Assembly: GCA_035277545.1 (NCBI GenBank)
Contig: DATEKI010000280.1
Coordinates: forward strand, 1 to 50,204
Direction: 5' to 3'
DNA from: Rhodanobacteraceae bacterium
GTDB taxonomy: Bacteria > Pseudomonadota > Gammaproteobacteria > Xanthomonadales > Rhodanobacteraceae
DNA length: 50,204 nt
Positions 11,478 to 48,988 of the stretch are shown here, one piece after another. A program made the position numbers and the translations under genes. The number at the start of each line of letters is the position of its first letter. Position 1 is the stretch's first letter. The notes under the pieces are model-generated. The model was not told the origin of the DNA, searched no databases, and saw nothing but the letters and a program-made list of their open reading frames with translations.

Positions 11478-11478
11478 A

Positions 11479-21870: not shown

Positions 21871-22758
21871 CTATTTGCGCTTCGCGCGCGGATGTGCCGC
21901 GTCGTACACCTTGGCGAGGTGCTGGAAATCGAGGTGCGTGTAGATTTGGGTCGTGCCGATGTCGGCGTGGCCCAGCAGTTCCTGCACCGCGCGCAGGTTG
22001 CCCGAGGATTCCAGCAGGTGCGACGCGCAGGAATGCCGCATCAGGTGCGGATAGACGCGTCGCCAGATGCCCTGCGAACGCGCGCGGCGCTTGATCGCGG
22101 CGCGTACCGCGCCGGCGGTCAGCGGCTGGTCGTTGCGCCCCCGAAGGATCGGTGCGTCCGCATCCGCAGGCTGCGATTCACGTAGCGCGGCGAGCGCTTC
22201 CAGCGCCATCCGGCCGACCGGCACGATGCGGGTCTTGTTGCCCTTGCCGGTGACGCGCAGCAGGCCCTGATCGGTGTCGAGATCACGCCAGCGCGTGCCG
22301 CACAGTTCCGATACGCGCAGGCCGCTGGAATACAGCAGCTCGAGCATCGCGCGGTCGCGCAGGGCCAGCGGGTCGCCCGCCGTGATTTCGACCAGTGCGG
22401 TGGCCTCGTCCACATCCAGCACTTCCGGCAGCTTGCGGCGCACCTTCGGCGAACGCACACCCGCGGCCGGGTTGTTCCGGATCTTCCCCTCGCGCGCGAG
22501 GAAGCGGAAGAAGCTGCGGAAGGCCGACAGCATCGCACGCAGCGACGGCGGCTCCAGCCCGCGGCGGTGTTCGTTTGCGATCAGCGTCTGCACCTGTTCG
22601 CCGCGCAATTCATCCCACGCGGTCAGGGAAAGTCCGTCGGCGAAGCGCGTCAAGGCTTCCAGCGCGTGCGTGTAGTTGCGCAGCGTGCCCGGCGAATAGT
22701 GCCGCTCGACTTTCAGGTAATCCAGGAACCGCGCGGCGTCGGCGGCGAGGCCGCTCAT
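21871..22758 (-). CDS. xerC: Tyrosine recombinase XerC
   Basis: FLDYLKVERHYSPGTLRNYTHAL is the N-terminal SAM-like domain. The catalytic residues appear in context (ELLYSSGLRVSEL, HLMRHSCASHLL, LLGHADIGTTQIYTHL). Synteny with dapF and DUF484 supports the call. Confidence 0.9.
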   Translation of the reverse strand: MSGLAADAARFLDYLKVERHYSPGTLRNYTHALEALTRFADGLSLTAWDELRGEQVQTLIANEHRRGLEPPSLRAMLSAFRSFFRFLAREGKIRNNPAAGVRSPKVRRKLPEVLDVDEATALVEITAGDPLALRDRAMLELLYSSGLRVSELCGTRWRDLDTDQGLLRVTGKGNKTRIVPVGRMALEALAALRESQPADADAPILRGRNDQPLTAGAVRAAIKRRARSQGIWRRVYPHLMRHSCASHLLESSGNLRAVQELLGHADIGTTQIYTHLDFQHLAKVYDAAHPRAKRK

Positions 22759-31614: not shown

Positions 31615-31681
31615 GTCCGCCGATCCTATCTTGATTTTGCAACAGGCGAGCGCCACGCTGTGGAATCCCCCGGAGCCACGC

Positions 31682-33727
31682 ATGCCCACCGAAAATCCCC
31701 TGCTCAGCAATGCGGCATTGCCCGCGTTTTCGAAAATCCGTGCGGCCGACGTGGTGCCCGCGATCGATACGGTCCTGGCCGATTACCAGTCCGGCATCGA
31801 TCGGTTGACCGCCGCCGGCGCGCCAGGCGACTTCGAGCACGTGATGCTGGAACAGGAACGCCTTGACCAGCGCCTTTCGCATGCGTGGGCACCGGTGTCG
31901 CACCTGCACGCGGTCGCGGACAACAAGGAATTGCGCGCGGCCTACGAGCAGGCCGAGGAAAGGATCACCGATTTCGCCAGCGCGCTGGGACAGAACCGCG
32001 ACCTGTACGCCAAGGTGCAGGCGGTTGCCGATGCGCCGGGCTTCGTGCGGCGGTCACCCCCGGAACGCGCGCTGGTCGAACATGCACTGCGCGACTTCAG
32101 GTTGTCGGGCGTCGCGTTGGAAGAACCCGCGCGCACGCGCTTCCGCGAAATCGCCAACGAGCTGTCCAGGCTCACCACCGCATTCTCGAACGCCGTGCTG
32201 GACGCGACCGACGCGTGGCAGGAACACATCGAGGACGAGCGCGACCTCGCAGGCATCCCCGAGTCCGGACGCTCGGTGCTGCGCGAATACGCGCGCGAGC
32301 ACGATCTCGACGGCTGGCTGGTGACGTTGAAGCAGCCGGCCGTGCAGGCGGTGCTCACCTACGCGGACAATCGGGGCCTGCGCGAACGCGTGTACTGGGC
32401 GTACCAGACGCGCGCGTCGGACCAGGGGCCGGACGCCGGCAAGTTCGACAATTCGGAACGCATGGAGAAGATCCTGGCGTTGCGCTTCGAGGCCGCGCAA
32501 CTGCTGGGCTTCGCCAACGCGGCGGAAGAATCGCTGGCGACCAAGATGGCGGAAACGCCGGATGAAGTGCTGGCTTTCCTGCGTGACCTTGTTGCGCGCG
32601 CCAGGCCGGTCGCGCAACGCGAGCTCGAAGAGCTGCGCGAATTCGCGCGCAACGAACTCGGGCTGGAAACACTCGAATCCTGGGATGTCGCGTACGCGTC
32701 TGAGAAATTGCGCATCGCGCGTTACGCGCTGGACGAGGAACAACTGAAGGCGTATTTCCCGCTGCCTTCGGTGATGGATGGCATGTTCGCGCTCGCCGGC
32801 CGGCTGTACGGCATCAGCGTCGAACCGGCGCGCGAAGCCGTGGACACGTGGCACCCCGACGTGCGCTATTGCGAAGTACGTGGTGTCGATGGCAAGCCCG
32901 TCGCGGGCGTCTACCTCGATCTGTACGCGCGCAGCGGCAAGCGCGGCGGCGCCTGGATGGACGTATGCCGAGCGCGCTTCCGCGACGGCGACGGCGTGCA
33001 ATTGCCGATCGCGTTCCTCACCTGCAATTTCGCTCCGCCGGATGGCCAGCGTCCATCGCTGCTGACCCACGACGACGTGCAGACGCTGTTCCACGAGTTC
33101 GGCCACGGCCTGCACCACATGCTGACCCGCATCGACCTGCCTTCGATCGGCGGCATCGACGGCGTGGAATGGGATGCGGTGGAACTGCCCAGCCAGTTCA
33201 TGGAGAACTTCTGCTGGAACCGGCAGGCGCTGGATCTGTTTGCCAAACACTGGTCGAGCGGGGAGCGGCTCCCCGATGAATTGTTCGGCAAGATGCTCGC
33301 GGCGCGCCATTTCCAGGCGGGCATGTTCCTGTGCCGTCAATTGGAATTCGGCCTGTTCGATTTCATGCTGCATGCGACCTACGATCCGGCGCGCGGCGCG
33401 CGCGTGATGGAAACACTGGAAGCCGCGCGGCGCGAAGCGGCGGTGCTGCACCCGCCCGCGTGGCAACGTTTCCCGCATGCGTTCACGCACATCTTCGCGG
33501 GTGGATACGCAGCAGGCTATTACAGCTACCTGTGGGCCGAGGTCCTGTCGGCCGACGTGTTCGGTGCGTTCGAGGAGCATGGCGTGATCGATGCCGCGAC
33601 CGGTGCCCGTTTCCGCGATGAGTTCCTGGGCGTGGGCGCGAGCCGGCCAGCACTCGAAAGCTTCATCGCATTCCGCGGGCGTGCGCCGCAACCGGAAGCG
33701 CTGTTGCGCTCCTACGGACTGCAGTGA
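31682..33727 (+). CDS. prlC: Oligopeptidase A (M3-family zinc metallopeptidase)
   Basis: MPTENPLLSNAALPAFSKIRAADVVPAID opens the protein, and the zinc motif is LFHEFGHGLHHM. The length of 681 aa fits. The internal ATG 31682 is chosen over the ORF start at 31319. Confidence 0.9.
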   Translation: MPTENPLLSNAALPAFSKIRAADVVPAIDTVLADYQSGIDRLTAAGAPGDFEHVMLEQERLDQRLSHAWAPVSHLHAVADNKELRAAYEQAEERITDFASALGQNRDLYAKVQAVADAPGFVRRSPPERALVEHALRDFRLSGVALEEPARTRFREIANELSRLTTAFSNAVLDATDAWQEHIEDERDLAGIPESGRSVLREYAREHDLDGWLVTLKQPAVQAVLTYADNRGLRERVYWAYQTRASDQGPDAGKFDNSERMEKILALRFEAAQLLGFANAAEESLATKMAETPDEVLAFLRDLVARARPVAQRELEELREFARNELGLETLESWDVAYASEKLRIARYALDEEQLKAYFPLPSVMDGMFALAGRLYGISVEPAREAVDTWHPDVRYCEVRGVDGKPVAGVYLDLYARSGKRGGAWMDVCRARFRDGDGVQLPIAFLTCNFAPPDGQRPSLLTHDDVQTLFHEFGHGLHHMLTRIDLPSIGGIDGVEWDAVELPSQFMENFCWNRQALDLFAKHWSSGERLPDELFGKMLAARHFQAGMFLCRQLEFGLFDFMLHATYDPARGARVMETLEAARREAAVLHPPAWQRFPHAFTHIFAGGYAAGYYSYLWAEVLSADVFGAFEEHGVIDAATGARFRDEFLGVGASRPALESFIAFRGRAPQPEALLRSYGLQ

Positions 33728-33779: not shown

Positions 33780-35621
33780 GTGCAGACGCATTCCTGGCTG
33801 GCATCGGTGCTGGTGTTCCTGGTCGCGGTCGTGATCGCGGTGCCGTTGTCGCGCAAGCTGAAGCTCGGTTCGGTGCTGGGCTACCTTGCGGCCGGCGTGG
33901 TGATCGGGCCGTACGGCCTCAGATGGATCCAGAACCCCGAAGCGATCGCGGGGGTATCGGAACTCGGCGTCGCGCTGCTGCTGTTCGTGATCGGCCTGGA
34001 GCTTTCCCCGCAGCGGCTATGGGTGATGCGGCGCGCGGTGTTCGGTGCGGGCGCATTGCAGGTGGCCGGTTCGGCGCTGGTGATGGCGCTGATCGCGGTG
34101 TTCGGATTCCACTTGAAGCCCGTGACCGCGATCGTGGTCGGCTTGGGCCTCGCGTTTTCATCCACCGCGTTCGGCCTGCAGATCCTTGCGGAGCGGCGCG
34201 AGTTGCAGAGTGCGTACGGCCGGCAGGCATTCGCGATCCTGCTGTTCCAGGATCTGGTGGCGATTCCGCTGATCGCCGCCATCCCCTTGTTGGCCGACCA
34301 TGGCGGCGCACACGCGGCGAACATGCCCTCATGGTTGTCGGCCTTGCGGGTCGCGGGCGTGATCGCCCTGGTCGTGGTGGGCGGACGTTATGCGTTGCGG
34401 CCGATCTTCCGCGCCGTCGCCAGGACGCAGTTGATCGAGGTTTCCACCGCCGTCGCGCTGCTGGTGGTGATGGGCGTGGCGTGGTTGATGCAGCTGGCGG
34501 GGATTTCCATGGCGCTGGGCACCTTCCTGGCCGGCGTCCTGCTGGCCGATTCGGAATACCGCCACGAACTGGAATCGAACATCGCGCCGTTCGAGGGGCT
34601 TTTGCTCGGCCTGTTTTTCATCGCCGTGGGCATGGGCGTGGACCTGCACCTGCTGGAACAGCATCCGTGGCTGGTGGCGGGCCTGGTGATCCTGCTGCTC
34701 GCGTGCAAGGCGCCGGCGCTGGCACTGGTGGGCCGCCTGAACAGGCGCATGACCAACGCCGATGCACTCAAGCTGGTGGCGCTGCTCGCGGGCGGCGGCG
34801 AATTCGCGTTCGTGGTGTTCAAGCTTGCGCGCGAGCAGGGCCTGCTGACGCCGACCCAGCACGGCGTGCTGGTGCTGGTGGTCACGCTGGGGATGGCTGC
34901 GGTGCCGCTGCTGGTGCTGGCGGCCGCGAAACTGCCCGAGCCGAAAACGCCGGTGCGCGAGTACGACACCATCGACACCGGCGCGCCGCGCGTGGTGATC
35001 GCGGGGTTCGGACGCGTCGGCCAGATCGTGGGCCGCTTGTTGCGTGCGCGCGGGATCCCGTTCGTGGCGCTGGAAAGTTCAGTGGAACAGGTCGACCTGT
35101 CGCGCCGTTTCGCCGGCACCGAGATTTTCTTCGGCGATCCCACCCGTGCGGAAATCCTGCGCGCGGCCGGGGCCGGCAAGGCCGATGTGTTCGTGTTGGC
35201 GACCGATGATCCGGACACCAACGTGCGCACCGCGCGGATCGTGCGGCGGATGTTTCCGCATCTCAAGATCGTCGCGCGTGCGCGCAACCGCCAGCACGCG
35301 TTCCGCCTGATGGACTTGACCTCCGACCCCGACGACGTGGTGCGCGAGACGTTCTACTCCAGCCTGAAGATGGCGGTGCTGACGCTGAAGGCGCTGGGCA
35401 TGGACAGGGAACAGGCGCGCGCGATCGTGGAATTATTCCGCGAGCACGACGAAAAGCTGCTGCGCGACCAGCACCTGGTGTACGACGACGACGTCGCGCT
35501 GCGCCAGACCACGCGCGAGGCCTACGAGGAACTGCAGGGCCTGTTCGAAGCCGACACCGCGCAGCGGCGGGAAGAAGCTACTCCGGATGCGTCATCACCG
35601 GTGTCACCACCGGTGCATTGA
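33780..35621 (+). CDS. CPA2-family monovalent cation:proton antiporter with a C-terminal RCK/TrkA-N domain (KefB/KefC-like K+ efflux)
   Basis: The protein has about 12 TM helices, followed by VVIAGFGRVGQIVGRLLRARGIPFVALE (a Rossmann GxGxxG). It uses a GTG start at 33780. Its 3' end overlaps the convergent ankyrin gene by 44 bp. Confidence 0.85.
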   Translation: MQTHSWLASVLVFLVAVVIAVPLSRKLKLGSVLGYLAAGVVIGPYGLRWIQNPEAIAGVSELGVALLLFVIGLELSPQRLWVMRRAVFGAGALQVAGSALVMALIAVFGFHLKPVTAIVVGLGLAFSSTAFGLQILAERRELQSAYGRQAFAILLFQDLVAIPLIAAIPLLADHGGAHAANMPSWLSALRVAGVIALVVVGGRYALRPIFRAVARTQLIEVSTAVALLVVMGVAWLMQLAGISMALGTFLAGVLLADSEYRHELESNIAPFEGLLLGLFFIAVGMGVDLHLLEQHPWLVAGLVILLLACKAPALALVGRLNRRMTNADALKLVALLAGGGEFAFVVFKLAREQGLLTPTQHGVLVLVVTLGMAAVPLLVLAAAKLPEPKTPVREYDTIDTGAPRVVIAGFGRVGQIVGRLLRARGIPFVALESSVEQVDLSRRFAGTEIFFGDPTRAEILRAAGAGKADVFVLATDDPDTNVRTARIVRRMFPHLKIVARARNRQHAFRLMDLTSDPDDVVRETFYSSLKMAVLTLKALGMDREQARAIVELFREHDEKLLRDQHLVYDDDVALRQTTREAYEELQGLFEADTAQRREEATPDASSPVSPPVH

Positions 35622-38600
35622 GCGGCGCGCCACGGCGTGGCGCCAGTTCCATCGCCAGATCGACGTAACCCAGAACGCGCGCGACGTCCGACGGCGTGCG
35701 CTGCATGCAGTCGCGTGCTTCGCGATTGGCGCCGCGCTGCAGCAACACGCGCGCGGGTTCGAAGGTGGCGTGCATTGCGCAGGCGTGCAGCGCGGTGACG
35801 CCGTGTTCGTCGGCGTGGTCGAGGTTCGCGCCCGCGTCCAGCATCGCCGGCAACAGCGCGCCGAGGTGGGTGCCGTCGCAATCGGCGCCGGGCTTGGTTT
35901 GCACGCCGAGCAGGACCAGCAGGGGCGTGGCGCCGCCGCGGTCGGCGGTGTTCACGGGTGCAGGGTCGTGCAGCAGCGCATCCAGCAACCGATGGCAGCG
36001 CAGGCTGTCGCGGCTGTCGAAGCAGAAGCGCGCGGCGGCGTGCAGCGCGGTCTGGCCACGGGCATCGGCGAGGTTGGCCTGTGCACCGAGCTCGCGCAAT
36101 ACCGCGACCATGTCGGGATGACCCAGCGCGGCGGCGATCATAAGGGCCGTCACGTCGTCCGCGTGGCGCAGGTCCACCGGCACGCCCGCGGCAACCAGCG
36201 CGCGCGCGATGTCCGGCTGGCGCGCGCTGACGGCGGCCGACAGCGGCGACGCGCCGGTGTCGACCGTCAGCCTGGGATCGGCGTGCGCGGCCAGCAACCG
36301 CTGCACGCTTTGCAGCGCGCCGGCGCCGCTCGCACGCAGCAGCGCGGTGGCGCCGCGGCTGTCGCGGGCGTCCACGGGCAGGCCGAGTTCCAGCAGGCGT
36401 GCGACGGCATCCGGGTCGGCGGCGGCGGCGGGCAGGTCTTCGTCGCGCAGCGGGCGTTTCGGCAGGGGCCAACCGTTCCAGCGCAGCCAGTGTTCGAGTT
36501 TGGAGGCATCGCGCGCGAGCGCGAGCCCGAGCGGCGTTTCTCCGCTGGCGGCGGGACTTTCCGGATCCGCTCCATGGGCGATGAGCGCTTTCACCAGCGG
36601 CAACACTTCGCCGGGGTTGCCGTCGAGCGCGACATGCAGGGGCGTGGCACCCGCCCGGTCGCGGGCGTTGGGATCGGCGCCGCGCGCGAGCAGCCCACGC
36701 AACACGGGCATCAGGGCCGGGCGGCTGGCGTGGTGCAGCGGCGTGCGGTTGTCTGCATCGACGCCGAACGCATCCGCGCCGCGTTCCAGCATCGCAAGCG
36801 CGAGCGCCGCGCCATCTCCATCATCCAGGCGTGCGAGTGCCCGACCGAACCGTCCCGCGCCCGCAGGCGTGGCACCGGCGTCGAGCAGTTGGCGCACGGC
36901 CGCGTTCGATGCCGGCAGGTGATCGAGCAGCGCGTCGAACAGGCGGTTGCCGTCATCGAGGCGTGACTCGGCGCCGAGCCCGTGTTCCAGCAGCCATGCG
37001 CGCGGCGCGGTGTCGGCGTGATCGGCGAGGTCGAGGTACAACGCGGCGAGTTCGGTGGCAGGCCACGTACGCACACGCTCCTCGAAGCGCGCGACCACGC
37101 TCCAGTGCGCGAAGCGCAGCGCGTCGAGCAAGTGCTGCGGCGTGTCCGCGCCCGGATCGGGTTCGTTGCCGCGCGCATGGCTGGCGGGCAATGCAGCCTC
37201 GGGATCCATCAACGCCACGAGATCCCAGCGCCCGGCGGTGCTGGCCTGGTCGATGGCGTTGCGGCCGTCGCTGCCCTTGCGCGCCGGGTCGGCGCCGAGA
37301 TCCAGCAGCGCACGCACGCATGCCGCGTTCGCGCGCGGCGACTGGCACGCGAGCATCAGCGCGGTGCGGCCGTGTTGGTCGCAGGCGTTCACGTCGGGAT
37401 TTTTTTCCGCGAGCAGGGCGACGACGCCCGCCGCGCCCGCGCGCGCGGCTTCCATCAGGGGCGTGGTGCCGTAGCGGTCGGCCAGCGTCACGTCCGCGTT
37501 CGCGTCCAGCAACACGCGCGTGATCTCGACGTGGTTTTCGCGTGCCGCGTGCAGCAACGCGCTGCGTCCGAGGGCATCGACGGCCGTGGCGCGGCCCTTG
37601 TGCTTGAGCAGGATCCGCACGCCTTCCGGATCGTCGTCGGCAATGCCCGCGGCGGCCGGCACCGCGGCGTCGGCGTGCGCGCCGCGTTCCGCCAAGAAGC
37701 GCAGCACCGGCCAGTTCGCCGCGGCTGCCGCGACCGCGAGTGGCGTCGCCTGTTCGCGGTTGCGCGCTTCCAGCGGTGCCTGCGCGTCGATCAGGATCGC
37801 GGCGACCGCGGGTTCCGCGCACAACGCGGCGTGGTGCAGCGGCGTGTTGCCGTCGGCGTCCGCGCGTGCCGGGTCGGCGCCGTTCGCGATCAGGCTGGTC
37901 ACCATTTCGGGACGGCCTTCGTGGCAGGCGCGCGTGGTCGCCAGGAGCGGCGTCAGGTCGGCGTGCGCGCGATTGACGTCGGCGCCCTTGGCGATGAGGG
38001 CGCGCAGCAAGTGCGTGTCTGGCAGCTCCGCGGCCAGCACCAGTGCGGAACGCTGGTCGCGCGCACCCGCGGGCGGTATCGCGTCGGGATTCGCGCCCTG
38101 CGCCAGCCAGTCCATCGCCGCAGTGATGTTGCCGTCGCGCGCGGCGGTGAGCAGGTTTTCGTCCAGCACGGCCTGCGCGAGCGGGTCGGGCTTTCCGGCT
38201 GCGTTTTCCACGGCGGCGTCGACCGCCCCGGCGGGCACCGCTTCGGAACGCGGGCCATCGTTCGGCGGCGCCGGCTTGGGGCCGGCTGGCGGCGCCGGGG
38301 GCCGTGGCGCGAAGCGCCGCACGCGGCCATCGAACAACAGGCGCAGCGTGCGGTCCGCCACGATCAGCGAACACAACGGCAATACCACCACCGCGAACAG
38401 GAACAACGATGCCGTGCGGATTTCGTCGGGCAGGCTGGCGCCCATGCCCGCCAGGGACAATGCACCGAATGCGACCGCGAGTTGCGCGAGCGAAGCCGGC
38501 AGGAAGTGCGTGAGGAACAAGTCGCGCCCGCGCGTGAGGTGGCGCGCGAAGGCAAGGCTGCGCGCCAGCGCGGCGGTGATCCAGGAATGTTCCTCGCCGG

Positions 38601-39024
38601 CGGGAAATGCGTCGTCCCACGCGAATACCAGACCGAACACCGGCCAGAAACGCCACAACACCAGCAGCGCGATCACCAGCGCGACCGCAAGGCCGAGCGC
38701 CGCCGCCAGGGAAGGCGCCTGCGACAGCACCGTCAACGGCCACGCCACCAGCAGGAACACGATCGCGGTGTGGATCGCCAGCGCGATCAGGTGTGCCGGT
38801 CCGCGCCGCAACGCGGTGCGCAAGAAGGTGTGTTCGCAACCGAAGCCGATCGCATGGCACACGGCGGCCATCGACAGGGACGCGCCGACCAGCAGCAGCA
38901 ACAACGAATAACGTTCCCACGCGGGGGGAATCCAGATCGCGAGGAACACCACGATCAGCGAAGGAAGGAAGCAGGGCAGGGAACGGGACAGCGGTGGCCG
39001 ACGGCGGTACTTGGCTGGTGGCAT
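35578..39024 (-). CDS. Polytopic membrane-anchored ankyrin-repeat protein (1148 aa)
   Basis: The N-terminal ~250 aa contain about 6-7 hydrophobic helices (for example LPSLIVVFLAIWIPPAW and LGLAVALVIALLVLWRFWPVFGLVFAW). A Pro-rich linker (PRPPAPPAGPKPAPP) follows, then about 880 aa of ANK repeats (DADGNTPLHHAALCAEPAVAAILIDAQAPLEARN, DRYGTTPLMEAARAGAAGVVALLAEKNPDVNACD and others). Confidence 0.85.
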   Translation of the reverse strand: MPPAKYRRRPPLSRSLPCFLPSLIVVFLAIWIPPAWERYSLLLLLVGASLSMAAVCHAIGFGCEHTFLRTALRRGPAHLIALAIHTAIVFLLVAWPLTVLSQAPSLAAALGLAVALVIALLVLWRFWPVFGLVFAWDDAFPAGEEHSWITAALARSLAFARHLTRGRDLFLTHFLPASLAQLAVAFGALSLAGMGASLPDEIRTASLFLFAVVVLPLCSLIVADRTLRLLFDGRVRRFAPRPPAPPAGPKPAPPNDGPRSEAVPAGAVDAAVENAAGKPDPLAQAVLDENLLTAARDGNITAAMDWLAQGANPDAIPPAGARDQRSALVLAAELPDTHLLRALIAKGADVNRAHADLTPLLATTRACHEGRPEMVTSLIANGADPARADADGNTPLHHAALCAEPAVAAILIDAQAPLEARNREQATPLAVAAAAANWPVLRFLAERGAHADAAVPAAAGIADDDPEGVRILLKHKGRATAVDALGRSALLHAARENHVEITRVLLDANADVTLADRYGTTPLMEAARAGAAGVVALLAEKNPDVNACDQHGRTALMLACQSPRANAACVRALLDLGADPARKGSDGRNAIDQASTAGRWDLVALMDPEAALPASHARGNEPDPGADTPQHLLDALRFAHWSVVARFEERVRTWPATELAALYLDLADHADTAPRAWLLEHGLGAESRLDDGNRLFDALLDHLPASNAAVRQLLDAGATPAGAGRFGRALARLDDGDGAALALAMLERGADAFGVDADNRTPLHHASRPALMPVLRGLLARGADPNARDRAGATPLHVALDGNPGEVLPLVKALIAHGADPESPAASGETPLGLALARDASKLEHWLRWNGWPLPKRPLRDEDLPAAAADPDAVARLLELGLPVDARDSRGATALLRASGAGALQSVQRLLAAHADPRLTVDTGASPLSAAVSARQPDIARALVAAGVPVDLRHADDVTALMIAAALGHPDMVAVLRELGAQANLADARGQTALHAAARFCFDSRDSLRCHRLLDALLHDPAPVNTADRGGATPLLVLLGVQTKPGADCDGTHLGALLPAMLDAGANLDHADEHGVTALHACAMHATFEPARVLLQRGANREARDCMQRTPSDVARVLGYVDLAMELAPRRGAPLNAPVVTPVMTHPE

Positions 39025-40814: not shown

Positions 40815-40914
40815 CACCCTCTTCGAAACGAAGGGGGTCGCTGCGAAGCAGCGGGGATGCGCGCTCGCGTGAGAATGCCGTCCCCCTCGTTCCCCCTTCC
40901 TCCGGAAGGGGGTG
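40815..40914. repeat. Composite REP-like element of about 100 bp, copy 1
   Basis: It contains the hairpins CTTCG-AAA-CGAAG(GGGG) and CCCCCTTCC-TCC-GGAAGGGGG (40892-40912). It is collinear with copy 2 at 43713-43812; the 38-nt cores GCCGTCCCCCTCGTTCCCCCTTCCTCCGGAAGGGGGTG and GCCATCCCCCTCGGTCCCCCTTCCCGCGGAAGGGGGAG differ at about 5 positions. Confidence 0.55.
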
Positions 40915-40937
40915 TGCATGTGAAGCGTGTTCCACGA

Positions 40938-40962
40938 CCCCGCCTTCCGGCGGGGTTTTTTT
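40938..40962 (+). terminator. Rho-independent terminator downstream of fadL
   Basis: CCCCGCC-TTCC-GGCGGGG is followed by TTTTTTT (40956-40962). Confidence 0.75.
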
Positions 40963-40985: not shown

Positions 40986-41001
40986 GGTGTCCGCGGACAC
41001 C
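40986..41001. promoter_or_regulatory. Perfect 16-bp palindrome GGTGTCCGCGGACACC upstream of the permease array
   Basis: It was read directly from the sequence. It lies 163 bp upstream of the first permease ATG. Related GTCCGGA motifs occur at about 40969 and about 41048. With only two central unpaired bases it is better suited to binding a dimeric protein than to forming an RNA hairpin. Confidence 0.35.
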
Positions 41002-41163
41002 CCTCGTGGCGATCGTTCCGCTGCAAGCGCTTGATTGCGGGCGCGTTGTCCGGATGACGCGCGTGGCATGCCGGATGCAATCAAGACGCAGGAGCCAGCG
41101 AGCCGTGCGGCAGCGTCGCGTCGTTCCACGCAGCGCACGCTCGACACCTTCACGGAGAATGGG

Positions 41164-42474
41164 ATGTTCGGCTACTACCTTGATCTCGCGGTACACAGCC
41201 TGAAGCGCAACCGGGTGCTGACCGCGCTGATGATGCTGGCGCTGGCGGTCGGCATCGGCGCGAGCATGACCACGCTGACGGTGCTGCACGTGCTGTCGGG
41301 TGATCCGCTGCCCGGCAAGAGCGGCGAACTGTACTACCCGCAGATCGATCCACAGGACGCGCGCGGGATGATGCCCGGCACGCTGCCGCCGGAGCAGGTC
41401 ACCCTGATCGACGGCATGAACCTGCTGCGCGCGAAGCGCGCGGACCGTCAGGCGTTGATGGAGGGCGGCGCGGTGCCGATCCAGCCGGAATCCTCGTCAC
41501 TCGATCCGTTCTACGTGGAAGCGCGCTACACCAGCGCGGATTTCTTCGCGATGTTCGATGCGCCGTTCCTGTACGGCCACGGCTGGACCACCGCCGGCGA
41601 CGAGGCGCATGCGCGCGACGTGGTCATCACGCGCAAGCTCGACGACAGGTTGTTCAACGGCGCCGACAGCACGGGGCGCACGCTGCGCATCGGCGGTACC
41701 ACGTTCCGCATCGTCGGCGTGCTCGACACCTGGCATCCCAATCCGCATTTCTATGACATCGACACCGGCGCTTACGACTACTACGAAGAGGTGTTCCTGC
41801 CGTTGCAGACCGCACTGGAACTGCATTACGACCGCAACGGGTCGGTCGATTGCTGGGGCAACGGCACCGGCGGCGTGGAGGGCACGTCCTACCCGTCGGC
41901 GACATGCGCGTGGCTGCAGTTCTGGGTGGAACTGGACAGCCCGGCGAAAGCGGCGGCGTACAAACAGTTCCTGATCCACTACTCGGAAGAGCAAAAGACG
42001 CTCGGTCGCTTCGTGCGCGGGCCGAACGTGCGCCTCGACGACCTCACGCAGTGGCTCGATTACAACGGCGTGGTGCCGAGCGACGTGCGCCTGCAGGCGT
42101 GGCTCGCGTTCGGCTTCCTGCTGGTGTGCCTGGCCAACACGGTCGGCCTGATGCTGGCGAAGTTCCTGCGCCGTTCAAGCGAGTTGAGCGTGCGGCGCGC
42201 ACTGGGCGCGTCACGGCGCGCGTTGTTCGCGCAGTTGCTGATCGAGTCCGGCGTGGTCGGGCTGGCCGGCGGCCTTGGCGGCCTGCTGCTCGCGCTGCTC
42301 GGATTGTGGATGGTCCGGCACCGCTCCACCGACTACGCATCGTTGGCGCACCTCGATCCCGCGATGTTGCTGGTCACGTTCGCGCTCGCGCTTTGCGCCA
42401 GCCTGCTGGCCGGAATCCTGCCCGCATGGCGTGCCTGCAACGTTTCGCCGGCCCTGTTGATCAAGAGCAACTGA
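41164..42474 (+). CDS. FtsX/MacB-type ABC permease, type A, copy 1 (436 aa)
   Basis: MFGYYLDLAVHSLKRNRVLTALMMLALAVGIGASM contains TM1. An extracytoplasmic domain of about 280 aa follows, then three TM helices with the coupling-helix motif ELSVRRALGASRRALF. The internal ATG 41164 is chosen over the ORF start at 41035. Confidence 0.85.
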   Translation: MFGYYLDLAVHSLKRNRVLTALMMLALAVGIGASMTTLTVLHVLSGDPLPGKSGELYYPQIDPQDARGMMPGTLPPEQVTLIDGMNLLRAKRADRQALMEGGAVPIQPESSSLDPFYVEARYTSADFFAMFDAPFLYGHGWTTAGDEAHARDVVITRKLDDRLFNGADSTGRTLRIGGTTFRIVGVLDTWHPNPHFYDIDTGAYDYYEEVFLPLQTALELHYDRNGSVDCWGNGTGGVEGTSYPSATCAWLQFWVELDSPAKAAAYKQFLIHYSEEQKTLGRFVRGPNVRLDDLTQWLDYNGVVPSDVRLQAWLAFGFLLVCLANTVGLMLAKFLRRSSELSVRRALGASRRALFAQLLIESGVVGLAGGLGGLLLALLGLWMVRHRSTDYASLAHLDPAMLLVTFALALCASLLAGILPAWRACNVSPALLIKSN

Positions 42475-42475
42475 C

Positions 42476-43708
42476 ATGGACATCCTGCCGATCCTCTCGA
42501 CGTTGCGCCGGCACAAGGTCATCCTGTGGTTGCTGATGCTGGAGATCGCGCTGAGCTGCGCGATCATCTGCAACGGCGTGTTCCTGGTCGCGCAGCGCAT
42601 CCAGCACATGGATATGCCCAGCGGCATCGCCGAGCACGAGCTGGTGCAGATCCAGCAGGCGCCGATCGCGTCGCCGCCGGATCGTTATGCACGCGCGCAG
42701 GAAGACCTCGCCGCGCTGCGGCAGATTCCCGGCGTGCAGGCGGTCGGCATGAGCAACCAGGTTCCGTTCGGCGGTGCGTCGTCGAACGGCAACGTGATGC
42801 TCTCGCCCACGCAGCCGCACCGGACCTTGAGCGCGGCCGAATACTTCGGCGAGAACCTGGTGCAGACGCTCGGGTTGCATCTGGTCGCTGGGCGCAGCTT
42901 GCGGCCCGACGAATACGTCAATGCGGATGTGGTGATCCGGGAACTCGCCGACGGCAGCGACAAGGGCTTCCCGATGCCGATGCTCGTCAGCCAGGCGCTC
43001 GCCACGCGCCTGTGGCCGCAGCAAAACCCGCTGGGCAAGCTGGTCTGGCTGACCCCCACCGCGAGCTTCCGCGTGGTGGGCGTGGTGGCGACGTTGGCGC
43101 GTGCCAACGCCTGGAGCACCGCTACCGCCCAATACTCGATGATCATCCCGTTGCACATGGGTGCGGACAAGGATCAAAGCTATCTGCTGCGCACCCGGCC
43201 CGAGGACCGGCAGCGCGTGCTGGCCGCCGCGGTGGCGGCGCTGAAACGCGCGGACCCGGCGCGCGTGATCACGCACACGCGCACCTACGACCAGATCCGC
43301 AGCGATTACTTCAAGGACGACCACGCCATGGCGGGCATGCTGGTGAGCGTGATCCTGGCGGTGCTGCTGATCACCGGGCTCGGCATCGTGGGGCTCGCGA
43401 GTTTCTGGGTCGCGCAGCGCCGCAAGCAGATCGGCATCCGCCGCGCGCTGGGTGCGACGCGCGCCGACATCCTGCATTACTTCCAGACCGAGAATTTCCT
43501 GATCGTCACGTTCGGCATCATGGCCGGAATGGCGCTGGCCTACGGCCTCAGCCTGTGGCTGATGATGCATTACGAATTGCCGCGCCTGCCGCTGACGTAC
43601 CTGCCGATCGGTGCGGTCGTGCTGTGGCTGATCGGACAACTGGCCGTATTGGGTCCGGCTCTGCGGGCAGCGAGGGTGCCGCCTGTCGTGGCGACGAGGA
43701 GCGTGTGA
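42476..43708 (+). CDS. FtsX/MacB-type ABC permease, type B, copy 1 (410 aa)
   Basis: MDILPILSTLRRHKVILWLLMLEIALSCAIICNGVF contains TM1. An extracytoplasmic domain follows, then QIGIRRALGATRADILHYF and three TM helices. The ATG lies 1 nt after the A1 stop codon. Confidence 0.85.
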   Translation: MDILPILSTLRRHKVILWLLMLEIALSCAIICNGVFLVAQRIQHMDMPSGIAEHELVQIQQAPIASPPDRYARAQEDLAALRQIPGVQAVGMSNQVPFGGASSNGNVMLSPTQPHRTLSAAEYFGENLVQTLGLHLVAGRSLRPDEYVNADVVIRELADGSDKGFPMPMLVSQALATRLWPQQNPLGKLVWLTPTASFRVVGVVATLARANAWSTATAQYSMIIPLHMGADKDQSYLLRTRPEDRQRVLAAAVAALKRADPARVITHTRTYDQIRSDYFKDDHAMAGMLVSVILAVLLITGLGIVGLASFWVAQRRKQIGIRRALGATRADILHYFQTENFLIVTFGIMAGMALAYGLSLWLMMHYELPRLPLTYLPIGAVVLWLIGQLAVLGPALRAARVPPVVATRSV

Positions 43709-43712
43709 TGAA

Positions 43713-43812
43713 CACCGCCTTCGTTCCGAAGGGGCGGAGCGAATGCGCCGGGGGATGTCGTCTTGTGAACAAGAGCCATCCCCCTCGGTCCCCCTTCCCG
43801 CGGAAGGGGGAG
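43713..43812. repeat. Composite REP-like element of about 100 bp, copy 2
   Basis: It has the same order of hairpins as 40815-40914: CCTTCG-TTC-CGAAGG, then CCCCCTTCC-CGC-GGAAGGGGG. It fills the 125-bp gap between permease B1 and A2. Confidence 0.55.
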
Positions 43813-43833
43813 GACAAGAATGGGAGCGATTGA

Positions 43834-45150
43834 ATGTTTGGCTATTACCTCGACCTCGCCCTGCGCAGCCTCAAACGCAACCCGGCGCTCACCGCGCTGA
43901 TGATCGTGGCGATCGGCTTCGGCGTGGCGGCGTCGATGATCACGTATTCCGTGTTCCGTGCGGTATCGGGCGATCCCATTCCCGACAAGTCCGCGCAATT
44001 GTTCACGCCTCAGATCGACAGTTGGGGGCCGCAGCAAAGCTTCAACGGTGACAACGAGCCTCCGCAGGCGCTGGACTACACCGATGCGATGGCGCTGATG
44101 CGCGCACACGCGGCGAAGCGGCAGACTTTGCTTTATCCGGTGCAACTGTCGCTGATGCCAGGCGGCAGCCGCAGCCTGCCGATCAAGGCGAACGGCTACG
44201 CCGTGTACGGCGATTTCTTCCCGATGTTCGAGGTGCCGTTCCACTACGGCAGCGGTTGGAATGCAACGCAAGACCAGGCCCGCGCACCGGTGATCGTGCT
44301 GAGCCAGGAGTTCAACAAGAAGCTGTTTGGCGACGCCAACAGCATCGGCCGGGAGATCAACCTGGACGGCCACGATTATCGGGTCGTGGGCGTGACCCGG
44401 CACTGGGATCCCGTGCCGCGCTTCTATTCGTTGTTCGGCAGCAGCGGTTTCGAGCAGCCCGCGGATTTCTACCTGCCGTTCACCCGCGCGCTGGACCTCA
44501 AGATCGATACCGCCGGCAACAACAGTTGCCGCAAGGTCACGACCATGAATGGCTGGGACGACTGGTTGCACAGCGATTGCGTGTGGATCACGCCGTGGGT
44601 GGAACTGGACAGTGCCGCGGACGTCGCGCGCTATCGCAATTTCCTGCAAGGTTATTCCGCCGACCAGCAGCGCGCCGGTCGCTTCGGCTGGGCGCCCAAC
44701 ATCCGCCTGCGCGACGTGACGCAATGGATGGCGTACATGCACGTGGTGCCGCCCGAGAGCCGCATCTCGCTGATGGTGTCGCTGGGTTTCTTCCTGATCT
44801 GCCTGGTCAATACCGTCGGGTTGCTGCTCGCCAAGTTCATGCGCCGCGCCAGTGAAATCGGCGTGCGCCGTGCGCTGGGTGCCTCGCGGCGCGAGATCTA
44901 CATTCAATTCCTGATCGAGGCTGGCACGGTCGGCGTGGCGGGTGGCCTGCTGGGTCTGGTGCTGACGGCGATCGGCGTTTCCGGTGTTGGCTTGCTGTTC
45001 CGTCCCGAGATCGCGCGCCTGGCGCACGTGGACGTGTCGCTGGTGGCGTTGACGCTGGCGGTCGCGGTCGCCGCCACCGTGATCGCGGCGTTCTATCCCA
45101 CCTGGCGCGCGGCGCACGTGCAGCCGGCGTGGCATTTGAAAACCAATTGA
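43834..45150 (+). CDS. FtsX/MacB-type ABC permease, type A, copy 2 (438 aa, the most divergent A)
   Basis: MFGYYLDLALRSLKRNPALTALMIVAIGFGVAASM and EIGVRRALGASRREIYIQF are present, with a C-terminal FtsX-type three-TM bundle. GGGAG lies upstream of the ATG. Confidence 0.85.
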   Translation: MFGYYLDLALRSLKRNPALTALMIVAIGFGVAASMITYSVFRAVSGDPIPDKSAQLFTPQIDSWGPQQSFNGDNEPPQALDYTDAMALMRAHAAKRQTLLYPVQLSLMPGGSRSLPIKANGYAVYGDFFPMFEVPFHYGSGWNATQDQARAPVIVLSQEFNKKLFGDANSIGREINLDGHDYRVVGVTRHWDPVPRFYSLFGSSGFEQPADFYLPFTRALDLKIDTAGNNSCRKVTTMNGWDDWLHSDCVWITPWVELDSAADVARYRNFLQGYSADQQRAGRFGWAPNIRLRDVTQWMAYMHVVPPESRISLMVSLGFFLICLVNTVGLLLAKFMRRASEIGVRRALGASRREIYIQFLIEAGTVGVAGGLLGLVLTAIGVSGVGLLFRPEIARLAHVDVSLVALTLAVAVAATVIAAFYPTWRAAHVQPAWHLKTN

Positions 45151-45164
45151 TGCGGGGCACGCAA

Positions 45165-46397
45165 ATGCAAATCCAGCCCATCATTGCCGCGCTTCGCCAC
45201 CACAAGGCCGGCACCGTGCTGATCGCGCTGCAGATCGCGCTGACCCTGGCAATCGTGTGCAACGCGTTGTTCATCATCCATCAGCGGACGGTGCACCTGT
45301 CCGAGCCCACCGGCATCGACGAAGCCAACGTATTCGTGGTCGAGAGCCAGTGGGCAGGCCGGCAGTCCGACCAGCAGATCGACGCGCAAATCCAAGCCGA
45401 CCTCGTCGCGCTGCGGCAACTGCCGGCGGTGCGCGATGCGGCGCCGGCCAATTCGTATCCACTGCGTGGCGGTGGCTGGGACAACTTCATCACGATGAAG
45501 CCCGACCAAGTGCAGAAGACCACCGATGCCGCGGTGTACCTGAGCGACACCCACCTGGTCGACACGCTGGGCCTCAAGCTGATCGCCGGGCGCAATTTCC
45601 GTCCCGATGAAATCGAACCGATGGGGATGCGCGAGAACAAGACGCCGCCGGTGGCGATCGTGACCAAGGCGCTGGCCGACAAGCTGTTCCCGGATGGTTC
45701 GGCGCTGGGCAAGAGCTTCTACACCATGAGCGCGACGCCGACCACCATCATCGGGATCGTCGCGCGCCTGCAACGGCAGGAAGTCGACACCTGGTCGCGC
45801 GGTTACGCCTACCAGGCCATGCTGTGGCCGCGCCGCCTGGATGTGTCGTTCGGGACCTATTACATCGTGCGCGCCAAACCCGGCCAACTGGCGGCCGCGA
45901 TGCGCGAGGCCCCCAAGGCACTGCTCGCGCAGAGCCGGATGCGCATCATCGATCCCAGGGACGGCGTGCTGAGCTTCGCCGAAATCCGCCACCGTGCCTA
46001 CGACGGCGACCGCGGCACCGTGATCCTGATGGGCATCATCTGCGCGGTGCTGCTGGTGATCACCGGCGCCGGCATCATCGGGTTGACCAGTTTCTGGGTT
46101 GGCCAGCGGCGCAAGCAGATCGGCATCCGCCGTGCGCTCGGCGCGACGCGTACCGACATCCTGCGCTACTTCCAGACCGAGAACCTGCTGATTGCTGGCG
46201 CCGGCGTGGTATTGGGCGCGGTTCTCGCGGTCGGCCTGAACCTCTGGATGATGCGGCAGCTCGCGATGGACCGCATGCCGCTGTCGTACGTGCTGGCGGG
46301 AATCGTCGTGTTGCTGCTGCTGGGACAGGGCGCAGTGTTCGCGCCGGCGCGGCGTGCGTCGCGCGTGTCACCGGTGGAGGCGACGAGGAGCGTTTGA
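45165..46397 (+). CDS. FtsX/MacB-type ABC permease, type B, copy 2 (410 aa)
   Basis: MQIQPIIAALRHHKAGTVLIALQIALTLAIVCNALF aligns with the N-termini of B1 and B3, and QIGIRRALGATRTDILRYF is present. An alternative ATG at 45150 overlaps the A2 stop as TGATG. Confidence 0.8.
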   Translation: MQIQPIIAALRHHKAGTVLIALQIALTLAIVCNALFIIHQRTVHLSEPTGIDEANVFVVESQWAGRQSDQQIDAQIQADLVALRQLPAVRDAAPANSYPLRGGGWDNFITMKPDQVQKTTDAAVYLSDTHLVDTLGLKLIAGRNFRPDEIEPMGMRENKTPPVAIVTKALADKLFPDGSALGKSFYTMSATPTTIIGIVARLQRQEVDTWSRGYAYQAMLWPRRLDVSFGTYYIVRAKPGQLAAAMREAPKALLAQSRMRIIDPRDGVLSFAEIRHRAYDGDRGTVILMGIICAVLLVITGAGIIGLTSFWVGQRRKQIGIRRALGATRTDILRYFQTENLLIAGAGVVLGAVLAVGLNLWMMRQLAMDRMPLSYVLAGIVVLLLLGQGAVFAPARRASRVSPVEATRSV

Positions 46398-47701
46398 TGT
46401 TGGCCTACTACCTCGATCTCGCGCTGCGCAGCCTCAGGCGCAATCCCGTGCTGACGGGATTGATGGTGCTGGCGATCGCGCTGGGCATCGGTGCGTCGAT
46501 GACGACGCTGACCGTCTTGCACGTGCTTTCTGGCGATCCCTTGCCGGGACGCAGCGCGCACATCTACTTCCCGCAGATCGATCCGCGCGACATGAACGGC
46601 TATCAGCCGGGCGGGGAACCGGCCGACCAGGTGAGCTGGATCGACGGATTGAACCTGTTGCGCGCGCATCGCGCAGACCGTCAGGCACTGATGACCGGTG
46701 GCTCGGTGCCGATCCAGCCGGCCGGCGCGAATCTCGATCCGTTCTACGCCGATGCGCGTTACACCACCGCGGATTTCTTCCCGATGTTCGAGGTGCCGTT
46801 CGAGTACGGCGCGGCGTGGAACGCGGCCGACGATGAGGGTCGTGCGCGCGTCGCGGTGATCTCGCGCAAGTTGAACGACAAGCTGTTCGGCGGCAGGGAC
46901 AGCGTCGGCAAGACCATCGACGTCAACGACGCCAACCTGCGCATCGTGGGCGTGCTGGACACGTGGCGCCCGAATCCGCACTTCTACGACTTGTACCAGG
47001 GCACCTACTCGGAACAGGAGGACGTGTTCGTGCCTTTGACGACCTCGCGTGATTTGCACCTTGCGCACGATGGCTCCACCGACTGCTGGGGCAATGGCGC
47101 GCCCAGCCAGAAGGAGCTGGAACAGGCGCCGTGCACCTGGCTGCAGTTCTGGGTGCAACTCGACACGCCCGCGAAGACTGCCGCATACAAGGAATATCTG
47201 GTTCATTACTCGCAGGAGCAGAAGGCACTCGGACGCTTCCAGCGGCCGCCCAACGTGCGCCTGCGCGACGTGATGCAGTGGCTGGCGTTCGAGAAGGTGG
47301 TACCGGGCGACGTCCGCCTGCAGGTCTGGCTCGCATTCGGTTTCCTGCTGGTGTGCCTGGTCAACACCGTCGGCCTGATGCTGGCGAAGTTCCTGCGCCG
47401 CAGCGGCGAGATCGGCGTGCGCCGCGCGCTGGGCGCCGCGCGGCGCACGGTGTTCGAACAATTGCTGGTCGAGGCCGGCCTGGTCGGTTTGGCCGGCGGC
47501 GTCGGCGGCCTGCTGCTGGCGTTGCTGGGCCTGTGGCTGGTGCGCCGGCAGCCGGCGGATTACGCACGGCTCGCGCACCTCGATCCATTGATGTTGCTGG
47601 TCACGTTCAGCCTTGCGATCGGTGCGACCCTGCTTGCCGGCATCCTGCCGGCCTGGCGTGCCTGCCATGTCGCACCGGCACTGCAATTGAAGGGGAATTG
47701 A
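46397..47701 (+). CDS. FtsX/MacB-type ABC permease, type A, copy 3 (434 aa)
   Basis: MLAYYLDLALRSLRRNPVLTGLMVLAIALGIGASM and EIGVRRALGAARRTVF are present. The ATG overlaps the B2 stop as TGATG. The ORF start at 45824 is an artefactual extension. Confidence 0.85.
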   Translation: MLAYYLDLALRSLRRNPVLTGLMVLAIALGIGASMTTLTVLHVLSGDPLPGRSAHIYFPQIDPRDMNGYQPGGEPADQVSWIDGLNLLRAHRADRQALMTGGSVPIQPAGANLDPFYADARYTTADFFPMFEVPFEYGAAWNAADDEGRARVAVISRKLNDKLFGGRDSVGKTIDVNDANLRIVGVLDTWRPNPHFYDLYQGTYSEQEDVFVPLTTSRDLHLAHDGSTDCWGNGAPSQKELEQAPCTWLQFWVQLDTPAKTAAYKEYLVHYSQEQKALGRFQRPPNVRLRDVMQWLAFEKVVPGDVRLQVWLAFGFLLVCLVNTVGLMLAKFLRRSGEIGVRRALGAARRTVFEQLLVEAGLVGLAGGVGGLLLALLGLWLVRRQPADYARLAHLDPLMLLVTFSLAIGATLLAGILPAWRACHVAPALQLKGN

Positions 47702-47702
47702 C

Positions 47703-48932
47703 ATGCAGATCCTGCCGATCCTCTCCACCTTGCGCCGGCACAAGATCACGGCGTCGCTGATCGTGCTGGAGATCGCGCTGACCTGCGCGATCGTCTGCAA
47801 CGCGGTGTTCCTGATCAGCCAGCGCCTGCAGCGGATGGACATGCCGAGCGGCGTGGCGATGCACGAACTGGTGCAGGTGCAGGTCTCGACGATTGGCGAG
47901 CAGCCGGACGCCAAGGCACGCACGCAGGAAGACCTGGCGGCATTGCGCGGCATTCCGGGGGTGCAATCGGTGGCGCTTGCGAACGAACTGCCGTTCACCA
48001 ATTCGTCATCGAACAGCAGCATCCTGTTGAAACCCACGCAGACCCAGCCGACCCTCAACGCCACTTATTACACCGGTGAGGACGTCGCGCACGTGCTTGG
48101 CACCCGGCTGGTGGCCGGACGCTGGTTCCGTCCCGACGAGTACCTGGATTTCGAATACGTGGTGACGCACCAGGGCGACCTTCCGGATTCGGCGAGGATC
48201 GCGATCATCACCCACGCCATGGCCGAGAAGTTGTGGCCTGGCGAAAACCCGTTGGGCAAGACTTTCTGGATGGGCAATCGCATCGAGATGCGGGTGGTGG
48301 GCGTGGTCGAAAGCCTGATCCGACCGTCCTTGTGGATGGGTGACAACGCCGCGCAGTGGAGCATGGTCTTCCCGCTGCGCATGACGGTGGGCCAGGGCGC
48401 GTCGTACGTATTGCGCACCGCGCCGCAGGATCGGCAACGCGTGATCCGGGCCGCCGTTGCCGCCCTCAAGAAGCTCGATCCGAAACGCGTGGTCACCGAG
48501 CACCGCACACTGGACGACGCGCGCGCCGAATTCTTCCAGGGCGACCGCGCGATGACCGGCCTGTTGCTTGGCGTCATCGTTGCGCTGCTGCTGGTCACCG
48601 GCCTCGGCATCGTCGGCCTGGCCAGCTTCTGGGTTGGGCAGCGCCGCCGCACCATCGGCGTGCGTCGCGCGCTGGGAGCAACGCGCGCCGACATCCTTCA
48701 TTACTTCCAGACCGAGAACTTCCTGCTGGCGACCATCGGCATCGTGCTGGGGATGGTGCTGGCCTACGGCATCAACCTTTTGCTGATGCTGCACTACGAA
48801 TTGCCGCGGATGCCGTGGATGTACTTTCCGGTGGGCGCGCTTGCGCTGTGGCTGATCGGACAAATCGCCGTGTTGGGTCCGGCCCTGCGCGCCTCGCGCG
48901 TGCCGCCGGTGGTGGCGACACGCACGGTGTGA
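47703..48932 (+). CDS. FtsX/MacB-type ABC permease, type B, copy 3 (409 aa)
   Basis: MQILPILSTLRRHKITASLIVLEIALTCAIVCNAVF and TIGVRRALGATRADILHYF are present. The ATG lies 1 nt after the A3 stop, and AAGGGGA lies upstream. Confidence 0.85.
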   Translation: MQILPILSTLRRHKITASLIVLEIALTCAIVCNAVFLISQRLQRMDMPSGVAMHELVQVQVSTIGEQPDAKARTQEDLAALRGIPGVQSVALANELPFTNSSSNSSILLKPTQTQPTLNATYYTGEDVAHVLGTRLVAGRWFRPDEYLDFEYVVTHQGDLPDSARIAIITHAMAEKLWPGENPLGKTFWMGNRIEMRVVGVVESLIRPSLWMGDNAAQWSMVFPLRMTVGQGASYVLRTAPQDRQRVIRAAVAALKKLDPKRVVTEHRTLDDARAEFFQGDRAMTGLLLGVIVALLLVTGLGIVGLASFWVGQRRRTIGVRRALGATRADILHYFQTENFLLATIGIVLGMVLAYGINLLLMLHYELPRMPWMYFPVGALALWLIGQIAVLGPALRASRVPPVVATRTV

Positions 48933-48950: not shown

Positions 48951-48982
48951 CCAAAAAAGAAACGGGCGCCATCTGGCGCCCG
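48951..48982 (-). terminator. Rho-independent terminator for the minus-strand DUF4168 gene (the stem may also stop plus-strand readthrough)
   Basis: CGGGCGCC-ATCT-GGCGCCCG (48963-48982) forms the stem. On the minus strand it is followed by TTTCTTTTTTGG. Confidence 0.6.
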
Positions 48983-48988
48983 CATTCC

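Follow-up and report, generated by a model that had tools for sequence, protein, structure and literature searches.

A six-gene array of split MacB-type permeases in a Rhodanobacteraceae bacterium is most likely a detached, co-regulated part of a conserved, uncharacterized multi-permease pump

A contig of 50,204 nucleotides from a Rhodanobacteraceae bacterium (DATEKI010000280.1 of assembly GCA_035277545.1, analyzed over positions 1 to 50,204 and hereafter called the window) carries at 41164-48932 six permease genes on the plus strand, arranged as three coupled pairs of an A gene and a B gene. What powers such an array is the question raised by this locus. A preliminary description prepared from the DNA letters had presented the genes as orphan heterodimeric permeases with no ATPase, adaptor or regulator nearby, which would either share an ATPase encoded elsewhere or work by an undescribed mechanism. 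Our analysis led us to the view, held with good but not full confidence, that the six genes constitute a satellite operon of a larger, conserved MacB-type envelope pump of the Rhodanobacteraceae, with the ATPase, the adaptor and the regulator of that pump encoded elsewhere. The best reading of the data is that the satellite supplies alternative heterodimeric permeases that would be driven by this shared ATPase and adaptor. The broader proposition, that one adaptor-ATPase motor is shared by many interchangeable heterodimeric pairs, whether near or detached, under one sigma-54 control site, stands in our estimation at about even. No study treating this permease system was found in the literature searched.

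A six-frame scan of the 50 kb revealed no Walker A motif together with LSGGQ, the sole Walker A being that of HslU, and neither Pfam nor the motif scan detected an ATPase domain in any of the six permeases. Pfam scans of the remaining scanned open reading frames (ORFs) of the window yielded no ATP-binding cassette (ABC) ATPase, membrane fusion protein (MFP) adaptor, sigma-54 activator or TolC. The possibility that the array or the rest of the window conceals an ATPase was hence ruled out, including a cognate ATPase mis-annotated as one of the permeases, and the preliminary description was correct in placing no motor here.

The six genes belong to the type VII ABC (MacB/FtsX) permease superfamily. 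All six proteins matched the Pfam family FtsX (PF02687) with 54.8-61.8 bits against a cut-off of 25.5 (E 1e-14 to 1e-17), and five of the six matched MacB_PCD (PF12704) with 44.6-79.1 bits (cut-off 27). The 803 positions of the NCBIfam ADOP model are divided between the two types, the three A proteins aligning to positions 7-400 and the three B proteins to positions 411-801 (E 1e-44 to 1e-59); B1, which has no Pfam MacB_PCD match, still aligns to 411-801 through residues 11-408 of its 410. A single membrane helix at the N terminus and three at the C terminus were evident from the hydropathy of A3 and B3 and from an AlphaFold2 model of A3, the protein chosen for structure prediction (mean predicted local distance difference test score, pLDDT, 73.6). 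In a Foldseek comparison of this model with the PDB, the MacB structures 5gko, 5nik and 5lil ranked at the top (E 4e-17 to 6e-15), followed by Spr0694-0695 (5xu1), LolC/E, YtrF, HrtB and YbbP, with BceAB weaker; sequence searches of the PDB returned the same families, with MacB among the best matches. For A and B alike, the N-terminal helix, TM1, TM2 (TM, transmembrane helix) and the coupling helix were the best conserved parts and the periplasmic domain the least. Profile searches, hydropathy and fold matches thus all agree with the permease layout assigned earlier, as well as with its likening to the double-FtsX architecture of ADOP cut in two. The coupling-helix signature required an amendment: RRALGA is present in all six proteins, with the leading Glu confined to the A proteins and replaced by Gln or Thr in the B proteins.

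An ATPase came into view in the relatives. The closest homologs of A3 are found in Rhodanobacteraceae/Lysobacterales genomes and metagenome-assembled genomes (MAGs), namely Dyella, Frateuria, Rhodanobacter, Luteibacter and Fulvimonas. In Frateuria soli, a single run starts with genes for an MFP adaptor and an ABC ATPase, continues with five A-B pairs and closes with genes for a sigma-54 response regulator and a histidine kinase, separated by a small ORF, and the same core layout with two or three pairs was seen in other genomes. For a survey, species-representative genomes were scanned with A3 and the components were mapped by tblastn, giving 80 loci (individual loci are designated below by L numbers). 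MFP and ATPase genes lie in the array locus, almost always directly upstream, in 48 of the 80; in 24 the start of the array is cut by the end of the contig or locus, and the remaining eight have a visible start with no ATPase upstream. Linkage to an ATPase and an MFP adaptor therefore holds for 48 of the 56 decidable loci of these Rhodanobacteraceae relatives, so that being an orphan is not a property of the family, and nothing calls for the undescribed mechanism that had been contemplated. The A-B pair recurs in related genomes, usually linked to an ATPase and in runs of two to six or more: arrays judged complete contain 2-6 pairs (median 4), and some truncated loci at least eight.

The core ATPase of Frateuria scores well against the DarD, LolD, FtsE and MacB models, the best NCBIfam match being DarD (255.6 bits), and the core adaptor matches the RND_mfp, DarC and MacA models. 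Across genera the core ATPase is 80-96% identical, versus roughly 40-70% among the permease paralogs, a degree of conservation that fits a part that must suit many partners.

The pairing itself is strict. In the window, 1 nt separates A1 from B1 and A3 from B3, 14 nt separate A2 from B2, and 125 nt lie between B1 and A2; at the B2/A3 junction the ATG of A3 overlaps the TGA of B2 (TGATG). An alternative ATG for B2 at 45150 would overlap the stop codon of A2, and the start at 45165 was preferred because of homology with B1 and B3. The coordinates and gaps reported earlier are in agreement with these values, and the tight coupling extends across 307 A-to-B junctions of the relatives (median 16 nt, 87% of them at most 30 nt), the B-to-A junctions having a median of 64 nt. 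Identity between A proteins tracks that between their B partners (r=0.95). As judged from these comparisons the A-B pair is the unit of evolution, and because of the strict pairing the A and B proteins most likely form heterodimers. Pairs 1 and 3 of the window are sisters (67% identity for A, 60% for B), and pair 2 is distant from both (40-46%, with A2 at 44-46% to A1 and A3). The ratio of nonsynonymous to synonymous substitution rates (dN/dS) against orthologs is 0.11-0.23 across the six window genes, indicating purifying selection and ruling out decaying duplicates. Pair number and order vary even between close relatives, and arrays seem to gain, lose and reorder pairs quickly.

Orthologs of the window pairs, at 78-93% identity, occur in several arrangements. 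Pair 3 stands immediately 3' of the MFP and ATPase genes in L012, pairs 3 and 2 follow these genes in L013, and pairs 3 and 1 in L014, with 78-84% identity to the window pairs; the window permeases are therefore orthologous to ATPase-linked permeases of sister species. The order is 2, 1, 3 in MAG 66-474 (L009), and 1, 2, 3 in L011, where the A gene of a fourth pair precedes the contig end. Three other MAGs retain the location between fadL and putA: in L011 the array comes after the ankyrin gene and fadL, and in L010 and L018 the array is followed by DUF4168 and putA.

The closest full relative, MAG 66-474 (GCA_001899805.1), contains both a core and a satellite. Its satellite, on MKWP01000002, comprises pairs 80-93% identical to those of the window and lies between the genes for methylcrotonyl-CoA carboxylase alpha and HMG-CoA lyase, inside the leucine-catabolism (liu) operon. 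The core, on MKWP01000015, consists of an MFP gene, an ATPase gene (product P0254, recovered from the members of a 90%-identity cluster), an ORF of 100 aa and no fewer than 3.5 additional A-B pairs that are only 48-60% identical to the window pairs. This genome thus holds a total of at least six complete pairs plus the first part of a seventh, together with one adaptor-ATPase locus that was found and two operons of the same control architecture. Core and satellite share the same palindrome with the same flanking bases and the same 64-nt spacing to a -24/-12 element, and the two elements, TGGCATCGCACTTGCT and TGGCATCGCGCTTGCT, differ by one base. Of the two options left by the preliminary description, an ATPase encoded elsewhere is the one favored by this core and satellite, by the ATPase-linked orthologs and by the shared control region. 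The suggestion that the neighboring FadL channel pointed to a lipid substrate finds no support, as fadL has its own terminator and the 66-474 array sits in the liu operon instead. A core locus (L074) together with a detached pair (L088) was also found in Dyella choica.

The control region in question had been overlooked in the preliminary description, which stated that the array had no regulator; in fact, a sigma-54 promoter and a palindrome lie 5' of A1, and the palindrome also precedes the core operons. In the window, 64 nt separate the palindrome from the -24/-12 element downstream of it and another 85 nt separate this element from the ATG of A1, and chance would give 0.10 matches to TGGCAYGNNNNWTGCW in 50 kb. 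Of 89 loci, 48 contain a single exact copy of the palindrome, about 120-160 nt 5' of the MFP gene in core loci and at a similar distance 5' of the first A gene in detached arrays; the detached arrays with both palindrome and -24/-12 element before the first A gene are those of 66-474 (L009), L011 and L063. All 45 non-redundant palindrome loci have a downstream -24/-12 element, at a median distance of 66 nt (interquartile range 64-66), in which TGGCA and TGC are invariant, compared with 19% of random positions in a loose control. The 64-nt spacing of the window is identical to that of L009, L011 and the 66-474 core. The palindrome is a putative upstream activating site for a sigma-54 activator. 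The gene for such an activator, absent from the window, is found at the end of core loci, and its product would be the protein that binds the palindrome; with the palindrome as the site of that regulator, the window array would therefore belong to its regulon. The conserved palindrome also provides an easy motif by which all operons of the regulon in a genome can be located. A minus-strand sigma-54-like motif was observed 3' of the L009 array.

Could the permeases be ATP-driven through the ATPase of another system (LolD, FtsE or MacB-type), perhaps without the core adaptor? The partner cannot be read from the window, and MacB-family ATPases are alike, as evidenced by the fit of the Frateuria ATPase to four different models. 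We nevertheless regard this as unlikely, since the common control region suggests that the array and the core ATPase are expressed together, orthologous pairs reside in the same operon as that ATPase in relatives, and the far greater conservation of the core ATPase compared with the permeases is what would be expected of a protein fitting many partners.

The proposed satellite of a shared pump can be outlined as follows. Core loci encode the MFP adaptor, one MacB/LolD-type ATPase and in many cases a short ORF (about 100 aa), after which come varying numbers of A-B pairs, the sigma-54-dependent response regulator and the histidine kinase. Each A-B pair would assemble into an eight-helix heterodimer equal to one fused ADOP-type protein, and the RRALGA coupling helices of both subunits would dock on the shared ATPase dimer in the manner of LolC/LolE on LolD, giving a stoichiometry like that of LolD2CE, with two copies of the ATPase per A-B pair. 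With the shared MacA-like adaptor and an unlinked outer-membrane channel, such a complex would probably transport a substrate located in the periplasm or the outer leaflet. The periplasmic specificity would come with each pair, and because the periplasmic domains differ most, different pairs probably handle different substrates. The three pairs of the window would have moved away from the motor and been kept in the regulon by their own copy of the palindrome and the sigma-54 promoter.

A second class of detached pairs is present in Dyella and Rhodanobacter (L059, L069, L078, L081, L083 and L088, at about 8000-12500 in each). These loci contain a single A-B pair, 72-75% identical to A3, located 3' of a LytTR response regulator gene; in L088, the single locus of this class examined with Pfam, the regulator gene comes after one for a LytS-type kinase. 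Neither the palindrome, a sigma-54 promoter nor an ATPase was found within 10 kb of the pairs at the six loci. Such pairs, directly following a LytS-type kinase and LytTR regulator, keep alive for their own subclass the possibility that the permeases are mainly sensors or co-sensors of envelope or peptide stress for a two-component system, as BceAB is for BceS, rather than export modules, and core loci always end with a regulator and a kinase. For the array as a whole we rate a sensor role slightly below the use of a foreign ATPase: a conserved MFP adaptor gene opens the core operons, which speaks for transport across the envelope, arrays that reach eight or more pairs are hard to square with a single kinase, and the best structural matches are the pump MacB and Spr0694-0695, with BceAB behind them. 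That the pairs are true orphans, ATPase-independent and ion-driven or passive periplasmic machines as supposed for acidobacterial ADOP, is very improbable, for although the 50 kb hold no ATPase, the array is kept without one at the same site in three other MAGs and the ADOP family is defined by the missing linked ATPase (mentioned in passing in PMC3914696), orthologs lie within ATPase operons of sister species, few segments of A and B are as well conserved as the cytoplasmic coupling helix, the nearest relative with a detached array also has an ATPase core locus, and array and core share their promoter architecture. The orphan reading is hence largely explained away.

Some points weigh against the satellite interpretation that we prefer. 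The sequence of the window organism amounts to what appears to be one entire metagenomic contig of 50 kb, in which its core locus is not seen; the exact A3 protein was otherwise traced solely to one contig of 6.9 kb, and an ATPase of this organism was not found. No outer-membrane channel gene was seen beside any of the core loci inspected (10 kb around the ATPase or, in L001, around the permease). That one ATPase serves several pairs is something we infer, as are the substrate, the direction of transport and the assignment of the palindrome to the adjacent sigma-54 regulator. Finally, the six single pairs linked to LytS/LytTR establish that not every detached pair fits the regulon.

The features of the window are compiled in Table 1. 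As described earlier, fadL, which ends in a terminator of its own, lies on one side of the array; the other side has two genes of opposite strand, one for DUF4168 and one whose aldehyde-dehydrogenase domain is consistent with putA. Judged by its hairpin and T run, the fadL terminator marks the upstream boundary of the array transcription unit, and the GC-rich hairpin beyond B3 likely represents its end, by a presumed role on the plus strand. Taken together, the array looks like a self-contained transcription unit. The gap between B1 and A2 is occupied by a GC-rich repeat of about 100 nt containing CCCCCTCG(T/G)TCCCCCTTCC..GGAAGGGGG, which is about 70% identical to the second copy near fadL. 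The repeat is not present at the equivalent B1-A2 junction of L011 and therefore looks like a recent insertion resembling repetitive extragenic palindromic (REP) elements or miniature inverted-repeat transposable elements (MITE); functionally, it may lie outside the permease system.

Table 1. Positions of the array genes, their control and boundary elements, and other features of the window.
Feature	Position	Strand	Description
A1	41164-42474	+	436 aa; Pfam MacB_PCD and FtsX; ADOP 7-399, E 2e-44; dN/dS 0.14-0.16
B1	42476-43708	+	410 aa; Pfam FtsX; ADOP 411-801, E 4e-53; dN/dS 0.11-0.19
A2	43834-45150	+	438 aa; divergent pair type; dN/dS 0.11-0.18
B2	45165-46397	+	410 aa; dN/dS 0.13-0.23
A3	46397-47701	+	434 aa; sister of A1
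B3	47703-48932	+	409 aa; dN/dS 0.22-0.23
12-bp palindrome TGTCCGCGGACA	40988-40999		Single match in the window, even with one mismatch allowed
Sigma-54 type -24/-12 element TGGCATGCCGGATGCA	41064-41079	+	One TGGCAYGNNNNWTGCW match on both strands of the 50 kb
fadL intrinsic terminator	40936-40957	+	9-bp GC-rich stem, then T run
GC-rich hairpin between convergent B3 and DUF4168	48962-48983		Minus-strand terminator score: 9 pairs, 8 GC
Multi-hairpin intergenic repeat, B1-A2 gap	43713-43812	+	RNA fold z = -3.5
Second repeat copy	~40815-40915		Just after the fadL stop
TonB-dependent receptor	12336-15206	+	
Tetratricopeptide repeat (TPR) and sulfotransferase gene	15306-17171	+	Adjoins the plus-strand receptor gene
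TonB-dependent receptor	17232-19949	-	
TPR and sulfotransferase gene	~19847-21870	-	Adjoins the minus-strand receptor gene
Patatin-like phospholipase	29797-31782	-	N-terminal cyclic-nucleotide-binding domain; P-loop-like domain of the neuropathy-target-esterase (NTE) family
Ankyrin-repeat ORF	35578-39024	-	1148 aa, almost all ankyrin repeats; 73.5% GC

Several observations lie to the side of the permease genes. The ankyrin ORF occupies the most GC-rich part of the window and is 90% conserved in L011, along with fadL; it is unusually large for a bacterial ankyrin protein. The two TonB-dependent receptor genes each form a two-gene module with their sulfotransferase neighbor, and the modules are arranged roughly as mirror images within 12336-22177. 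The patatin-like protein is a bacterial neuropathy-target-esterase-like protein. With respect to the core loci, an ORF of 100-112 aa lies between the ATPase gene and the first A gene in some of them (L004 10919-11230, L007 10689-11027, L091 10889-11191), and Frateuria-type loci have one of 112 aa separating the sigma-54 regulator from the kinase (L001 19564-19902); no Pfam or NCBIfam match was obtained for these conserved small ORFs. Core loci also carry genes for a divergently transcribed extracytoplasmic function (ECF) sigma factor, an unknown protein and a PDZ protein. The identical ATPase P0155 accompanies three pairs in L004 and two in L005 and L006.

MacB-type pumps carry toxins, siderophores and peptides out of the cell and make their hosts resistant to antibiotics and antimicrobial peptides. 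To our knowledge, all characterized members couple one motor with one permease. If a single ATPase and adaptor indeed work with changeable pairs, bacteria would have a new means of broadening and rearranging the set of substrates handled by an envelope pump. Such sharing would also hint at how the orphan ADOP permeases of other phyla get powered and would render their unexplained orphan status directly testable, the expectation being a motor encoded elsewhere under shared regulation.

Membership of the ADOP, LolCE, MacB and DarB families was rejected on curated cut-offs, and each of these systems shares part of its design with the array. The closest in fold is MacAB-TolC, which has the same permease of one plus three helices with the MacB periplasmic core domain, and to which the core loci of relatives correspond in encoding a MacA-like adaptor and a MacB-type ATPase domain. 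In MacB, however, the ATPase is fused at the N terminus of the permease and one gene gives a homodimer, whereas the system described here has a separate ATPase, most likely A-B heterodimers in 2-8 or more pairs, some of them far from the motor, and predicted sigma-54 regulation; moreover, the window is without an MFP adaptor, which heads the core loci of relatives. Arrangements covered in a review of the MacB family are homodimeric, heterodimeric and fused, with no multi-pair arrays (PMC5985334). LolCDE, with two side-by-side paralogous FtsX-type permeases and a separate ATPase dimer, is the precedent for the proposed make-up. It differs in being essential housekeeping machinery with one pair per genome and no MFP adaptor, and the LolC/LolE models gave only 15-36 bits against cut-offs of 362-540.

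ADOP (TIGR03434) has the same overall architecture, with A corresponding to the N half and B to the C half in a full-length alignment. Each A or B protein scored 152-199 bits against the curated NCBIfam cut-off of 622.3, and the two halves, fused in ADOP, are here split with their own start and stop codons. The family described here is, furthermore, usually linked to an ATPase and an adaptor, the window alone being without an ATPase. Fused relatives of 831-868 aa in A-then-B order (P0370, P0380, P0408, P0434, P0448 and P0468), with an N half 38-42% identical to A3, align end to end with ADOP at 260-322 bits (cut-off 622); a sister group to curated ADOP therefore exists in both fused and split forms. 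Arrays of ADOP paralogs have been mentioned in passing for Psychroflexus torquis, their function being unknown (PMC3914696). DarBCD (NF038007, NF038008 and NF038010) likewise combines an adaptor, a separate ATPase and a double-FtsX permease; DarD is the best match of the core ATPase, DarC is matched by the adaptor, and DarB is weakly matched by the B proteins and A2. All scores are under the cut-offs (375, 450 and 700 bits), however, and DarB is a single fused polypeptide where the system described here has arrays of split pairs. Neither the window nor the inspected core loci showed peptide precursor or radical-SAM genes.

For the sharing of a motor, the comparison lies outside this superfamily; module sharing was not found described for type VII ABC systems in the literature searched. 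In the group II energy-coupling factor (ECF) transporters and the MsiK/MsmK systems, one energizing module serves several substrate-specific membrane modules, some of which are encoded elsewhere. Both are importers with unrelated folds, and the likeness to group II ECF transporters would reside in the principle of motor sharing. If the proposal is true, the Rhodanobacteraceae pump would represent a plug-in architecture for type VII ABC pumps comparable to that of the group II ECF importers.

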